40,137 nt of DNA. Source: Candidatus Hadarchaeota archaeon (GTDB lineage: Archaea > Hadarchaeota > Hadarchaeia > Hadarchaeales > Hadarchaeaceae). Where the stretch lies: contig JBFMBF010000011.1 in the NCBI GenBank assembly GCA_040755315.1, forward strand, positions 1-40,137, given 5' to 3'. Shown here piece by piece: positions 3,291-23,855 of this stretch. Below the pieces are notes generated by a model, which ran no database searches, had not been told where the DNA came from, and saw only the letters and a list, made by a program, of their open reading frames with translations. Position 1 is the first letter of the stretch, and each line of letters begins with the position of its first letter. Both the position numbers and the translations under genes were made by a program.

Positions 3291-3384
3291 TGGTGCTCCG
3301 GGCGGGATTCGAACCCGCGGCGTAGGCTTGCTCCCAAATGGCGTCGAGAGGCCTACATGTTTGACCGGGCTACACCACCGGAGC
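3291..3384 (-). tRNA. tRNA-Glu(CTC) with 16-nt 37/38 intron (3329-3344), CCA encoded
   Basis: GCTCCGG/CCGGAGC-A-CCA; anticodon arm TAGGC-CTCTCG|A-GCCTA; BHB central helix CTCT/GGAG; TTCGAAT T-loop. Confidence 0.93.
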
Positions 3385-4430: not shown

Positions 4431-4523
4431 TGGCGGGCCCGGGGGGATTTGAACCCCCGATGTGCAGCTTTTTCCGGATTTCCGTAGGACGCTGCCGCCC
4501 TATCCAGGCTGGGCCACGGGCCC
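4431..4523 (-). tRNA. tRNA-Arg(CCT) with 15-nt 37/38 intron (4470-4484), CCA encoded
   Basis: GGGCCCG/CGGGCCC-G-CCA; A20 in the D-loop; anticodon arm GCAGC-GTCCTA|A-GCTGC; relaxed BHB. Confidence 0.88.
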
Positions 4524-12233: not shown

Positions 12234-13654
12234 GTCCGCGCGACAAGCGCTTTCACTTTCGCCTTTTTGGAGCACCCGATGCAGTCACCGGACGGGCTGG
12301 CGCCGTCCACTTCTTCTCCCAAGAAATCCCCGCCCGTCTTCTCAGCAATATCTTTCCCACAGCTTTCTTGGCCGCACCAAGGGACTCTTACTACACCGCC
12401 GACTCTATCGATTATCTCCTTCGCTTCTCCCAGAACACTGACCTCGTTGATTGAACCTTTGAAAGTCTCCTGCGCTCGATCACGGAGCTCCGCCGTTATC
12501 TCCACCAACAGCTGCCTCGCCCGCTCCCTGAGCCCCTTTCTGGAGACGCTGAACCTCTTTCCTGTTGTTCTCGGCACAACCGTCACTTGGTCTTTCGTCA
12601 CTTCCTCTGGGCCGACCTCCACCCTGAGCGGGACGCCCCTCCTCTCCCAGTAGTAGTACTTGTTGCCGGGGCGGAGATCCCGGTCATCAAGATGTACTCT
12701 GAAGCCAGCTGCCGAAAGGTCGTCTTTCAGCGATTTCGCAAACTGCTCCACATTAGAGACCTTCTCCTTGTAAGGGATCGGAACGATGACAACCTGGATG
12801 GGGGCAACATCGGGGGGGAGGCAAAGCCCGACATCATCTCCGTGGGCCATAACCACCGCAGCGATCGCCCTCTCGGAGATGCCGTAGCAGGTCTGGTAGA
12901 CATGCTCGTGGCTCCCGTCCGACTTCTCGTACTCAATCCCGTAAACCCTTGAGAAATTCTGGCCGAGGTTGTGGACGGTTCCTATCTGCAATGTCCTGCC
13001 GTCCGGGGCGAGAGTGTCGAAGGCTATTGAGTACTTGGCCCCGGCAAACGTGTCCCATGGCGGGCGCTTTGTGACGGCGTGGGGGACTCCCAGCTCGTCG
13101 AAAAACTGCTTGTAAATATTCACGGCTTCCTTCACTTGGGCCTCTGCCTCCTCCTCTGTGGCGTGGGCTGTGTGGGCCTCCTTGAATGTGGTGACCTCGC
13201 GCAAACGGACGAGTGGCTTCGTCATCTTCGTCTCGTAGCGGAAGATGTTGACTAGCTGGTAGATTTTGAGCGGGAGGTCGGCGTGTGACCTGACCCAGAG
13301 GGCGAACATCGGGTACATCGATGTCTCGGACGTCGGGCGAAGGGCCAGCTTAACGTCCAGCTCATCGTTTCCTCCTCTTGTCACCCAGTAGACTTGGCCG
13401 CCGAAACCCCGGATGTGCTCGGCCTCCTTCTCAAAGAGGTTCTCAGGGATCAGCAGCGGGAACAGGACCTCCTGATGGCAGGTCTGCTCAAGGAGCTGTC
13501 TGACGATAGAGAAGACTGAGTTGCGGAGCTTCAGGCCGTACGGCATCCAAACGTAAAGTCCCTTCACGGGGTACCTCGTTTCCATTATCCCGGTTTCCTG
13601 GACGATGTCGTTAAACCATTCGCTGAAGTTCTCCTTTACCCGCTCGCGCTTCAC
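12227..13654 (-). CDS. proS: Proline--tRNA ligase (archaeal/eukaryal type)
   Basis: FSEWF, LRPTSET, FRYETK, LQIGTVHNLGQNF, GISER; C-terminal Zn domain ending ARTY. Confidence 0.96.
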   Translation of the reverse strand: MKRERVKENFSEWFNDIVQETGIMETRYPVKGLYVWMPYGLKLRNSVFSIVRQLLEQTCHQEVLFPLLIPENLFEKEAEHIRGFGGQVYWVTRGGNDELDVKLALRPTSETSMYPMFALWVRSHADLPLKIYQLVNIFRYETKMTKPLVRLREVTTFKEAHTAHATEEEAEAQVKEAVNIYKQFFDELGVPHAVTKRPPWDTFAGAKYSIAFDTLAPDGRTLQIGTVHNLGQNFSRVYGIEYEKSDGSHEHVYQTCYGISERAIAAVVMAHGDDVGLCLPPDVAPIQVVIVPIPYKEKVSNVEQFAKSLKDDLSAAGFRVHLDDRDLRPGNKYYYWERRGVPLRVEVGPEEVTKDQVTVVPRTTGKRFSVSRKGLRERARQLLVEITAELRDRAQETFKGSINEVSVLGEAKEIIDRVGGVVRVPWCGQESCGKDIAEKTGGDFLGEEVDGASPSGDCIGCSKKAKVKALVARTY

Positions 13655-13720
13655 ATTCCCACCCGTGGATAATCTCCATCGCCGATTTAAGAGGTTACTG
13701 TGAGGTGAATCTGCGAAACC

Positions 13721-15700
13721 ATGAAGCTGAAGCGGCTGCTGATATCCCCCTTGAGGATGAACAGGCGCGTGGCAATCGTCCTAGTGGTTCTGCTCGTGAT
13801 ATTCTCGGGCGCTCTTTTCATGAGGCTCGCCGTGACACTCGGCTACTGGCTGCCCTTGGGGAGGGACGGGCCTTACCACCTTTTCCATGTCAACTACTTG
13901 GCCGACCACTATCCTTCCAACCCCTACCTCGTCGGGACACCTCCGCTGTTCTTCCACTTCGCGGCTGGAGGGACTGGATTATTAACGGCATTCGGAGTAT
14001 CCCGGATAACTGCTTTTGACATTGCAACGGCGCTAGCCTCGGGGCTGGTGACCCTGACAACATTCCTGATGATGAGGCGGCTTACCAAAAACACCTACAC
14101 GGCGCTGGCGGCTGCTTTTTTCTCGGCTTTCCTCCCGGCCAGCCTCAGGATGATGGGCGAGCTCCAGAAGAATGCTTTGGGAGTATCGCTCGCTCCTCTA
14201 GCCGTGCTATTTCTCTGGAGGGGGCTGGAAGAAAACAAAAAGCTTGACTTGGTCCTGGCGGGTGTAGCGCTGGGGGTTGTAGGGCTGAGCCACCAGCTGG
14301 CGTTCGGCGCGCTTGTGGTGGCCTGCGTCACATACCTCGGCGTCCTGCTTGTTTATCACAAACGCATTCCGTTGAAGGAGATAAAGGCTGCTGTGATTGT
14401 TATAATTCCTCTTGCGCTGGTCGCTGGATGGTTCTACTACGGGGCGTTGGAGACTGCGGGGAGCCTGACCACCAACAGCATGCCCCCGACATTCATGGCC
14501 CAAGGGCCCGGAGAACAGCCGCTTCCACAGCCTTTTCAGGAGACGATTTACCGCTTTTATGACGAGTACATAGGTAAACCTCTGCTGGCACTCGCGGTCA
14601 TCGGTGGAGGTGTCGCGATCCACAGAAGAAAGAAGGCCGACCTCTTCCTGCTCGCGTGGGGACTGAGTTCTCTTGTTATGGCGCAGCCATGGGTCGACCA
14701 AGGCTACCAGTGGCGGTTTGTGATAACCCTTGCCGCACCCGTAGCCTTGCTTGGGGCTGTAGGTCTGGTGGATGGAGTCGGGGCTTTCCTGTGGAAGATT
14801 GGGGACTTGAAGAAGTCGTCCAAACGCCGGGGCAATGGAACAAGCGGCCTCGGCTGGGTGGGGCGCGGGGCATTCATCTTCCTTGTCCTGATTATTTTTG
14901 CAAACCGGGCATATGTCTCGAACACTTACGCCTGGACGGGGCAGATGCTGCAGCCTACAATATCCATGGACGAGTACAACTCCCTGACCAGCTTCCGCAG
15001 CCAGTTCGGAGAAGTTTACGTCTTCGGCACCGGGGAGCGAGTATTCCCATACTGGCCAGACGCTGTGGGGCTGAAAGGCACCATCCAAAGCAGTTCCATA
15101 TCCAGCCTATCCAACAGGCTACAGGGGCCCGTGAGCAGTGCGATGGATCTGGCGGTCGAGTGGTACAGGAAAGAGCGGGAGGTCGGGGGGAAGATTTACG
15201 CACTCATGGACCTGATGAGCCCGCAGATTCTTGAGAATGCGCAGCTTTTCAAGCGGGTCTTTGACAACTCAAACCTTCGCGCCTATGGGCTGAACGATAA
15301 TTTTGTGGCGCCGGAAAACTACCAGCCATCCGGCCAGCAGGGGGTGCAGACCTTTTCTTTCGATGGGCCGCCGCAGCAGCCGCCGCAAGATGGCAATCCA
15401 CCTCAGTACGATCAACAACCACAAAAACCTCAGTCGGCGGAGTCGCCTGTGCTGAAAGCTCTTATGGCGCCTGTTTACGCGCTGCCTGGCGGATGGAGGT
15501 TCGCCATAGGCGTGCCAATCACAGTCATGATCTGGGTGCTCCTGCCTTGCCTCACTTGCTGGGGTATGGGGAAGGTTCTCCCTGAAGACCAGTTGATGTC
15601 TGCGAAGAGGTTCATCATCATGGGTGGAGTTGTTTTATTCGTGATTGTTGTGTTCCTCCTTATACCACCATACTCGCAACAAATGGGGCCTGCATCCTAG
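13721..15700 (+). CDS. GT-C-fold (PMT/ArnT-like) membrane glycosyltransferase with P/Q-rich linker and two extra C-terminal TM helices
   Basis: GRDGPYH after TM1, PPLFF, SHQ and WRF motifs; many TM helices. Confidence 0.7.
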   Translation: MKLKRLLISPLRMNRRVAIVLVVLLVIFSGALFMRLAVTLGYWLPLGRDGPYHLFHVNYLADHYPSNPYLVGTPPLFFHFAAGGTGLLTAFGVSRITAFDIATALASGLVTLTTFLMMRRLTKNTYTALAAAFFSAFLPASLRMMGELQKNALGVSLAPLAVLFLWRGLEENKKLDLVLAGVALGVVGLSHQLAFGALVVACVTYLGVLLVYHKRIPLKEIKAAVIVIIPLALVAGWFYYGALETAGSLTTNSMPPTFMAQGPGEQPLPQPFQETIYRFYDEYIGKPLLALAVIGGGVAIHRRKKADLFLLAWGLSSLVMAQPWVDQGYQWRFVITLAAPVALLGAVGLVDGVGAFLWKIGDLKKSSKRRGNGTSGLGWVGRGAFIFLVLIIFANRAYVSNTYAWTGQMLQPTISMDEYNSLTSFRSQFGEVYVFGTGERVFPYWPDAVGLKGTIQSSSISSLSNRLQGPVSSAMDLAVEWYRKEREVGGKIYALMDLMSPQILENAQLFKRVFDNSNLRAYGLNDNFVAPENYQPSGQQGVQTFSFDGPPQQPPQDGNPPQYDQQPQKPQSAESPVLKALMAPVYALPGGWRFAIGVPITVMIWVLLPCLTCWGMGKVLPEDQLMSAKRFIIMGGVVLFVIVVFLLIPPYSQQMGPAS

Positions 15701-17365: not shown

Positions 17366-17391
17366 TTAGCTAAATTTTCCCATTTTTCTCC

Positions 17392-17399
17392 TTTAAATA
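17392..17399 (+). promoter_or_regulatory. TATA-like box TTTAAATA upstream of the tRNA-like cluster
   Basis: The only clear TATA-like element between the methyltransferase stop and the RNA element. Confidence 0.4.
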
Positions 17400-17441
17400 C
17401 TACCGCCACCCAAAACTCCGGTGGGAAACAGATGACAAAAA

Positions 17442-17492
17442 AAGTAACGGATAACTTACCAGTCCGACGGCATTTGAGTATCTCGCTTCGAA
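17442..17492 (+). repeat. Partial upstream copy of the tRNA-like element (D-arm + CCAGTCCGAC + TTCGAA remnant)
   Basis: AAGT-AACGGATA-ACTT-A-CCAGTCCGAC versus GGGT-AACGGATA-ACCC-G-CCAGTCCGAC at 17520-17546. Confidence 0.75.
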
Positions 17493-17510
17493 GGGTAAAA
17501 GATTTTCGGC

Positions 17511-17604
17511 GGGCGTGTGGGGTAACGGATAACCCGCCAGTCCGACAGTCGCATCTGCGGCCGACAGCTGGAAATCCGGGTTCGAATCCCGGCGCGCCCT
17601 ACCA
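17511..17604 (+). ncRNA. tRNA-shaped RNA with no assignable anticodon (35-nt extended anticodon arm)
   Basis: Acceptor GGGCGTG/CGCGCCC, D-arm GGGT/ACCC with GG, T-arm CCGGG-TTCGAAT-CCCGG, 3' end TACCA. I found no intron removal that gives a 7-nt loop with U33 and a proper BHB. Confidence 0.8.
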
Positions 17605-17622
17605 CTCAAGGAGGTGATGTAG

Positions 17623-17799
17623 ATGCTGGAGCTTTACGAGTGTCCCAGAAAACACCGCTTCCTGCGCGCCCCAAGCGGCCAAGAGGAATCCATTCCCTGC
17701 GCGTACTGTCTGGAATCAGCGAAGTTGGCTGGTACATTTGACGAAGATCGCTTTGAATCCAGTGTGCTCGGTTCATCTTTGGACATGTTGCGGAGCTAG
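17623..17799 (+). CDS. 58-aa Zn-ribbon microprotein MLELYECPRKHRFLRAPSGQEESIPCAYCLESAKLAGTFDEDRFESSVLGSSLDMLRS
   Basis: Below the ORF-track cutoff; strong SD AGGAGGTGAT; CxxxH...CxxC ligand pattern. Confidence 0.75.
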   Translation: MLELYECPRKHRFLRAPSGQEESIPCAYCLESAKLAGTFDEDRFESSVLGSSLDMLRS

Positions 17800-23693: not shown

Positions 23694-23855
23694 TGATTCC
23701 GCGAAGGCGCTCACAAGAACTTTTTATAAAAAAATAGAAAATTAATTATTGTCAGAGGTGTATCCTACCCAGATTGGACCACGGGGCCGACTTGCCTCTA
23801 GGCGATTTTTGTGTGGAGGTGATTTATAAGGAAGAAAACTCTGGTTATCCACGAT

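Follow-up and report, generated by a model that had tools for sequence, protein, structure and literature searches.

Hadarchaeota tRNA genes with altered anticodons and small opposite-strand genes predicted to bind and silence them

Background

SdsR-RyeA is reportedly a type VIII toxin-antitoxin system in which RNA is opposed to RNA. In the accessible descriptions of type VIII systems both toxin and antidote are RNA and act on translation, and the same is predicted for the Hadarchaeota cassettes presented here. Reported mutator tRNAs of the mutA type were likewise weighed as a precedent.

CreTA (PMC12737573) is archaeal and Arg-tRNA-related, as is our focal cassette. According to the available part of that article CreT is a tRNA-sequestering mini-mRNA and CreA represses through Cascade, whereas here a tRNA would itself be the toxin, and its putative antidote would be transcribed on the opposite strand from a partial copy that does not overlap it. 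Allo-tRNAs (Mukai et al., PMC5389517) also combine one identity with foreign anticodons, GUC being among the commonest, and share G73 and a long V arm in the Ser type. They are described in the accessible text as miscoding, sometimes lethal in E. coli and often located near toxin-antitoxin genes, and what is available of the main text makes no mention of antisense. Allo-tRNAs are bacterial with a Sec-like 8/4 or 9/3 branch in the sections available, while the Hadarchaeota tRNAs are archaeal 7/5, come from several parents and include forms with introns and 8-nt loops; the focal RNA has neither the 8/4 or 9/3 branch, nor a Sec-like D arm, nor a long V arm. The natural mistranslating tRNA-ProX (PMC10404621) has its own synthetase, and the text at hand contains no link to competence and 0 occurrences of the word antisense. 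Yeast tRNA-Ser anticodon variants (PMC6125640) are engineered mistranslators, with no antisense partner or competence link in the available portion of the source.

YrlA and Y RNAs (PMC4201824) are, in the accessible sections, tRNA-derived, non-standard and equipped with D and T arms, as is the focal RNA. YrlA adjoins Ro60 and has an acceptor stem closed by a loop in that account, whereas the focal RNA has neither feature; it also has neither the YrlA order of T arm before D arm nor a conserved GGUCCGA/GNCGAAN0-1G motif in a bulged helix near the 5' end. A tRNA with a dedicated antisense gene was found neither in Rfam nor in the literature searched, a search that most subscription papers fall outside.

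Results and discussion

A tRNA-like gene most likely derived from tRNA-Arg(GCG)

The window, by which we mean the whole 40,137-nt stretch of DNA analysed, is contig C11 of G000, an archaeal genome of 1.21 Mb that is 87 % complete. The following features are referred to by their positions in the window:

17383..17399, plus strand: regulon promoter, a pyrimidine tract in place of a purine-rich BRE, followed by the TATA box (17392-17399)
17405..17426, plus strand: 22-bp imperfect palindrome between TATA and start, common to the whole regulon (alignment A1, 43 promoters)
17437..17471, minus strand: predicted antisense RNA of 35 nt starting at 17471, from the direct repeat, the start geometry and an end in a U7 tract
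17493..17509, minus strand: housekeeping-type BRE and TATA for the antisense RNA, scoring 7.0 with the ordinary-tRNA-promoter matrix
17511..17604, plus strand: tRNA-like RNA (Rfam RF00005, 49.6 bits, E 4.6e-9; covariation)
17549..17565, plus strand: predicted 17-nt intron at the position that corresponds to the Arg(GCG) intron; its bulge-helix-bulge is relaxed and has one A.C mismatch
17610-17617 and 17623-17799, plus strand: SD and 58-aa CxxxH/CxxC ORF, read in the sequence
23710..23839, minus strand: second-cassette relic with regulon promoter, 5' tRNA half (23788-23751) and opposite-strand promoter spacer, without a 3' half

The sequence-only reading had placed a tRNA-like gene at 17511-17604, and both the Rfam match and the covariation in its family bear this out. 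The name given by ARAGORN shifts with the settings between Ser and intron-containing Val. We consider the host's tRNA-Arg(GCG) its most likely origin. Apart from an additional base in the anticodon loop (G at 17544), the anticodon arm and the beginning of the intron agree with that host gene, and A20 is found in 5 of 5 Arg against 1 of 28 other ordinary tRNAs of G000. A20, together with C35 and G/U36, serves as an Arg identity element. An automated ranking of parents by acceptor and T arm left Arg(GCG) tied with Val(CAC) and picked no single parent, so the assignment rests on the arm, the intron and A20; Val(GAC), considered as parent, was replaced by Arg(GCG).

Across the 11 aligned members of the focal family, 94.3 % of the cloverleaf cells are paired and two-sided changes occur at nine pairs; four stems contain compensatory changes. 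None of 500 shuffles reached the pairing or the two-sided-change value, a control that is inflated by related sequences. The normal 5-bp anticodon stem holds in 98.2 % of cells, the topology is that of an ordinary cloverleaf with a 5' acceptor in 11/11, and the 7/5 core has a short V loop and an extra pair above the acceptor (10/11). No member deviates at A20, C32, the extra G, C35, G37 or A38, and ten of the 11 have G36; the focal allele also has A36, U73 and C33. Position 73 is G in six members, A in four and U in one, several lack an encoded CCA, and C33, which would weaken decoding, is common.

The bulge-helix-bulge helix of the intron is 86 % paired with two two-sided changes in the family alignment, and a competing hairpin of 5-6 bp is equally well kept. 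A two-mismatch pattern search for the intron hairpin gave chance-level matches and was uninformative. EndA and RtcB were searched for and both found; EndA of the euryarchaeal type cuts relaxed motifs poorly (PMC6379350). Predicted excision at 17549-17565 would leave an 8-nt loop of the pattern C-Y-G-R-C-G-G-A. The gene thus departs from an ordinary intron-containing tRNA, which has a 7-nt loop with U33, by the predicted 8-nt loop, the invariant extra G and C33, and it has a distant regulon promoter instead of the purine-rich BRE-TATA found about 30 nt upstream of ordinary tRNAs. Nor is it a split or permuted tRNA: the gene is whole and colinear, and what is added to it is a partial copy on the same strand that lacks joining leaders.

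Several details of the earlier reading are present in the sequence, namely the 35-nt anticodon region, the T-ACCA end, the SD and the 58-aa ORF, and its view that this is a tRNA outside ordinary decoding is supported; the gene is conserved in relatives. Ordinary genes cover Val (GAC, CAC, UAC) and Arg (GCG, CCG, UCG, UCU, CCU), the codons whose service it had proposed to check. The bulged-C fold with a 3-bp stem fared poorly, with its outer pair in 3/11 members and its helix in 70.5 % of cells, and the arm sequence expected to be conserved, AGTCCGAC, is kept in only 3/11. CCGACA, said to occur on both strands, occurs twice on the plus strand instead, and the two splice products put forward (a 7-nt loop, or a 4-bp stem with a 6-nt loop) are both out of register with the Arg(GCG) alignment.

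The body appears to change quickly for a tRNA. Identities between the bodies of G000 and those of a same-genus genome are 68/90, 67/88, 76/92, 63/76 and 73/76, that is 76-83 % for four of the five pairs and 96 % for one. The focal body is 76 % identical to its same-genus orthologue, compared to 100 % for tRNA-Val(GAC) and 93 % (308/330) for L7Ae. Within the focal family identity is 99 % in the acceptor and 70 % in the segment targeted by the predicted antisense RNA. These figures suggest that the tRNA-like bodies diverge fast while their pairing is kept.

A partial copy with its own predicted promoter on the opposite strand

The sequence-only reading mentioned neither of the two promoters nor a 25-nt direct repeat, 88 % identical, between 17444-17468 and 17522-17546, which places a copy of the part of the tRNA-like body running from the D loop to the anticodon (D arm and 5' strand of the anticodon arm) 78 nt upstream. 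Such partial copies accompany 0 of the 38 ordinary tRNA genes of G000. In relatives the copy tracks its own locus and not the family consensus.

We curated 28 cassettes having both body and copy from 169 distinct promoter matches, covering 12 Hadarchaeota genomes and one metagenome contig; the copy lies upstream in 21 and downstream in seven. Outside this set stand near-identical repeats of L005, L148 and L254, truncated or deleted forms, L080 (a 58-nt exact duplication, possibly misassembled), L084 (a short copy in a different register) and L151. Full-length cassettes of the upstream-copy type were matched in 11 of the 65 genomes, spread over five genera, and downstream-copy types are present in further genomes. 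G000 has ten whole or partial cassettes, and a single genome may hold several unrelated ones. The cassette model R2 matched 0 of 38 genomes of another archaeal phylum in a scan run without a positive control; in viral contigs the spacer-tRNA junction had 0 matches and the promoter motif two.

Read on the minus strand, the AT-rich spacer between copy and body consists of a consensus BRE (CCGAAA), a TATA (TTTTTA), an AT-rich stretch and the copy. At the focal locus the first T of the TATA is 29 nt from the predicted antisense start. TAAA is invariant in alignment A2 and the motif is found in 27 of 28 cassettes; within the searched window of 15-40 nt, the distance from TAAA to the end of the copy is 20-32 nt in 27/28 and 23-27 nt in 23. 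With a matrix trained on the ordinary tRNA promoters of G000, this minus-strand promoter scores 7.9 at the 21 upstream-copy and 8.5 at the seven downstream-copy loci, compared to -2.6 on the plus strand, -1.1 in shuffled spacers and -0.6 on the minus strand upstream of 32 ordinary tRNAs. A U-tract lies 12-61 nt downstream in 27/28, preceded by a hairpin at the downstream-copy loci. A scan for sigma-70 promoters and intrinsic terminators, with models unsuited to archaea, gave no match. The presence of the copy together with a minus-strand BRE-TATA in the spacer makes the copy look like the gene of a 35-nt antisense RNA (17471-17437).

This predicted RNA is complementary over 28 nt to 17522-17549, comprising the D arm, the 5' strand of the anticodon arm, the loop and the 5' splice site, with 25 of 28 positions paired including two G.U. 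It is nearly unstructured alone; its predicted duplex with the tRNA-like body has -41.5 kcal/mol and the next non-self site in the genome, at the paralogue on C35, has -33.3. If the antisense product pairs with the tRNA, differences between copy and target are expected to favor G.U. We found 27 G.U-compatible internal transitions against seven incompatible ones, plus eight transversions, in the 28 cassettes. After shared contexts were collapsed the ratio is 23 to 7 (null share from base composition 0.40, p 5e-5), to be read with the caution that the cassettes come from kin and are not independent and that G.U tolerance in tRNA stems could contribute; the focal locus, with two compatible and three not, runs against the trend. 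The best target of a guide among the 28 bodies is its own body in 23 cases, and 27 of 28 guides bind their own body better than any ordinary G000 tRNA. Taken together, these results make it quite probable that an antisense RNA targets the tRNA-like RNA. A permuted, YrlA-like fold was considered for the downstream-copy loci and dropped, the copy having its own opposite-strand promoter.

Cassette forms without the stretch between the repeats are frequent, and L009 and L116 are decayed further. These two deletion forms look real, while other short forms may be assembly collapses, as a gap in L120 illustrates. The relic at 23710..23839 in the window, in which TAAA is 24 nt from the end of the tRNA half as in intact cassettes, is either a real deletion or an assembly collapse. 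The orthologue L002 is the only intact body found without a copy; its pair 1-72 is broken and its loop is scrambled. It is a single case, and an acceptor mismatch is also seen in two antisense-bearing bodies. Two extra antisense units with their own promoter spacers lie in G000 at C8:3720-3580 (minus strand) and C17:13365-13400 (plus strand), without a perfectly matching body in the assembly; the best match of the first is the Ser-GAA type of G002.

Decoding ends of the other cassettes

Paralogous cassettes, whose decoding defects were read by eye, differ from ordinary tRNAs in several ways. L254, L049 and L026 are intronless with 8-nt anticodon loops. L080, L222 and L223 have a Ser-type acceptor, G73 and a long V arm with the anticodons GUC or GAA, and keep a 7/5 core despite the long V arm. 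The GCU family has Arg-type bodies with GCU and irregular intron boundaries, L035 and L219 would carry UCA after canonical excision, and L084 is a Tyr-like gene with C33. The six loci of the Asp-anticodon family have a normal 7-nt loop and G73 and offer no evident miscoding route. Anticodon triplets are kept within families (GCU, UCA, GUC, RCG), and in the Ser-body and GCU families the mismatch between anticodon and identity is present in the sequence itself.

According to the accessible parts of the respective articles, SerRS ignores the anticodon (PMC11415595), Ser bodies with a GUC or GAA anticodon are toxic in yeast (PMC6125640), and natural enlarged anticodon loops are rare and do not always cause frameshifting (PMC5009743). 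What the antisense RNAs would target are tRNAs of host origin whose decoding ends are corrupted, the Asp-anticodon family being the main exception.

A promoter common to predicted DNA-uptake genes

From the spacing, plus-strand transcription of the focal cassette is predicted to start near 17421-17423. The regulon promoter scores 1.2 with the ordinary-tRNA-promoter matrix and is thus of a different class. Its model R1 matched 46 of 65 genomes of the class, of which 39 of 45 in the family. The promoter has 26 copies in G000 against 0 in the shuffled genome; whole or partial cassettes lie under nine of these copies and under one more at a contig end (C35). An exact-pattern scan of GTDB gave 22 matches, four of them labelled Hadarchaeota and the remainder probably due to chance.

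The recurrent first genes of the regulon encode a pilin-like cluster, a membrane OB-fold protein with TctA, a thermonuclease, Cas2-like, HTH, RHH and PIN-like proteins and functionally unnamed proteins; most genes of the regulon carry no assigned function. The pilins carry what we take to be a class III signal, from a pattern read by eye. Pilus, DNA transporter and nuclease genes are found under one motif, and their likeness to M. maripaludis transformation genes (PMC10133366) is by Pfam family without direct alignment. The available text of that transformation screen reports OB-fold plus TctA (essential), pili and a thermonuclease. Both sets share pilins, a TM-OB-fold gene beside TctA and a thermonuclease, while a common promoter motif and tRNA cassettes do not appear in the sections at hand. 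On the strength of that screen we read the regulon as a candidate competence-type programme, with a DNA-damage or cell-contact programme as alternatives. DprA was not found in G000, which is 87 % complete.

A divergent TFB with an altered C-terminal helix has an operon promoter that resembles the motif in most of 12 loci, above threshold in four. TFB-paralogue regulons such as the one reported for TFB3 may be likened to this divergent TFB, whose operon carries a related promoter. The TFB C-terminal helix reads the BRE in the available text of PMC13502027, and we regard the divergent TFB as a candidate master regulator of the motif. As a marker of the motif it was rejected: co-occurrence does not discriminate, and the paralogue is also present in genomes without motif matches, so that its regulator role is only a lead.

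Proposed mechanism and its alternatives

A host-derived tRNA with a corrupted decoding end lies under a promoter common to predicted DNA-uptake genes. Our preferred reading, which we hold to be evenly balanced, is that these tRNAs are poisons that miscode or shift the reading frame, that allele-matched antisense RNAs keep them in check, and that they are induced together with competence. There are strong grounds to infer that a housekeeping promoter would read the opposite-strand partial copy into an antisense RNA of 20-65 nt, and equally that this RNA would pair with its own tRNA, open the anticodon arm and cover the 5' splice site. Pairing over the arm and splice site would mean that leaky tRNA transcripts are never matured or used. 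Once the regulon is on, the tRNA would presumably outrun the antisense RNA, be processed and charged, and corrupt translation. The Arg-type family with 8-nt loops would be expected to cause a +1 frameshift or a stall at CGN codons, the Ser-body family Asp-to-Ser or Phe-to-Ser substitutions and the GCU family Ser-to-Arg substitutions. The outcome might perhaps be growth arrest, death of some cells or mistranslation tolerated during competence. With its A36, U73 and C33, the focal allele may have lost some of its activity or acquired another specificity.

It is also conceivable, if on balance unlikely, that the cassettes are allele-specific poison-antidote elements in DNA exchange from which only holders of the matching antisense gene escape. 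A poison tRNA made by the competence programme would then result in kin discrimination or in a gene drive made of tRNA only. The rapid change of the targeted arm, matched by its guide, the several unrelated cassettes per genome and the extra antisense units would fit such a toxin-immunity arms race.

A somewhat unlikely alternative to poisoning is an antisense-gated decoy or sponge, in which a non-decoding tRNA-like RNA titrates EndA, RtcB, RNase P/Z, a synthetase or EF-1A or, in a variant, is induced to shield the real tRNAs from the regulon's own nucleases; a decoy for the splicing endonuclease and RtcB had already been put forward by the sequence-only reading. The variable N73 and CCA, the frequent C33, the irregular introns and the acceptor conserved at 99 % against 70 % for the targeted segment are compatible with this, as are the Cas2-like, PIN-like and RelE-like genes of the regulon, the presence of EndA and RtcB and the inactivity in translation of some allo-tRNAs (PMC5389517, available text). 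However, anticodons kept by family together with synthetase identity elements predict miscoding, and a decoy has no need for allele-specific antidotes or rapid divergence of the arm. It has also to be asked whether the tRNA-like fold is a signal for RNase P/Z that matures the downstream mRNA, with the antisense RNA and the convergent promoter setting an expression threshold for that gene. Many cassettes do lie between the regulon promoter and a strong SD (PIN-like, Zn-ribbon and 96-aa genes), and the same genes also occur with the promoter without a cassette (L174, L178, G000 C20); yet the downstream-copy and several upstream-copy cassettes have no linked ORF, the downstream genes are mutually unrelated, and the guide always spans the anticodon arm although processing needs only the acceptor and T arm, which makes such a leader quite unlikely.

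That the cassettes are functionless, either duplicated tRNA pseudogenes in decay or what is left of integration sites, with copies that resemble each other owing to recent duplication or gene conversion, would account for the common deletion forms, the decay of L009, L116 and L007, the patchy presence and the possible assembly collapse at the L120 gap. We judge it very unlikely in view of the compensatory changes in four stems, the directional wobble bias, a minus-strand promoter and U-tract conserved in two layouts and the lack of an integrase among the regulon-flanking ORFs scanned. The Ro60-binding, Y-RNA-like mimic with a Zn-ribbon partner favored by the sequence-only reading has become scarcely credible. 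GUCCGA is present in the focal allele, and the YrlA motif GNCGAAN0-1G, as given in the accessible text of PMC4201824, can be read at the intron 3' end of 6/11 members, the focal RNA not being among them. Ro60 (TROVE) was found in 0 of 61 genomes, which are incomplete, in a search whose control was positive in 2 of 14 (Deinococcus and Bacteroides); Rfam scans found no Y-RNA family, the topology is ordinary, the bulged-C helix is poorly kept and the linkage to the ORF is rare. YrlA is defined by lying next to Ro60 and by an acceptor stem closed by a loop; with no TROVE in the 61 genomes, the Y-RNA reading fails.

The cassettes point to an unrecognized RNA poison and antidote system tied to gene exchange. 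If toxicity is shown, they would in formal terms count as type VIII systems whose toxin and antidote are of a new kind. If confirmed, this would be a gene family found in nature whose toxin or mistranslator is a tRNA, opposed by an anti-anticodon RNA dedicated to it. Such a family would give orphan miscoding tRNAs a testable purpose, supply four-base decoding with natural candidates and offer a way to switch off suppressor tRNAs. The toxin question aside, the 45-bp promoter identifies what may be a competence regulon of archaea, including many unnamed genes and a possible alternative TFB, and makes the control of archaeal DNA uptake directly testable.

Genes next to the cassettes and further observations

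The 58-aa Zn-ribbon ORF had been put forward as a dedicated partner of the RNA. It follows 2 of the 12 intact copy-bearing family members (the focal locus and L004) and the copy-less L002, hence three loci; the gene that comes after other members encodes a PIN-like protein, the CCA-adding enzyme, L7Ae or something else. It has no Pfam or NCBIfam match and weak Atlas leads, and two database homologues of similar length were found, one labelled Hadarchaeota. These linkages suggest a co-transcribed neighbour that is not an obligate partner. An ATG-TAG start-stop lies between the SD and the start of the ORF (17617-17622, plus strand), where L002 has an in-frame codon. The cassette is directly upstream of the CCA-adding enzyme gene in two genomes and of L7Ae in two others, L003:1779-3161 and L191 being among these loci. 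A predicted fold of the PIN-like protein was discarded (pLDDT 37); its Atlas lead is DUF3368/PIN.

Elsewhere in the window, 3291-3384 and 4431-4523 (both minus strand) are an ordinary intron-containing tRNA-Glu(CUC) and tRNA-Arg(CCU), which ARAGORN misnames with or without its intron mode. A third copy of the regulon promoter (25668-25226, minus strand) drives a 132-aa ribbon-helix-helix plus winged-helix protein that is a regulon gene in relatives. Stand-alone small Cas2/VapD-like proteins lie under the regulon promoter at C1:71819, C18:21167, C8:27783 and C30:6116 of G000; only one of the four has a Pfam Cas2 match, a weak one. The operon of the divergent TFB in G000 (C23:12338-14423; L217, L298) comprises a geranylgeranyl-reductase-like flavoprotein, the TFB (13521-14423) and a Zn-ribbon/TM/OB-fold gene.

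The downstream-copy cassettes L254:1380-1500, L049, L088:2050-2195, L084:1552-1680 and L026 have GGCA at the predicted start site and a complementary trailer at the end, so that an outer stem and a side hairpin enclose the tRNA; L254 and L049 have UCCA at the end of this outer stem, which thereby resembles a second acceptor. On C39 of G000 (L215, L216) the canonical TFB lies inside an 822-aa open frame, which suggests an insertion such as an intein.
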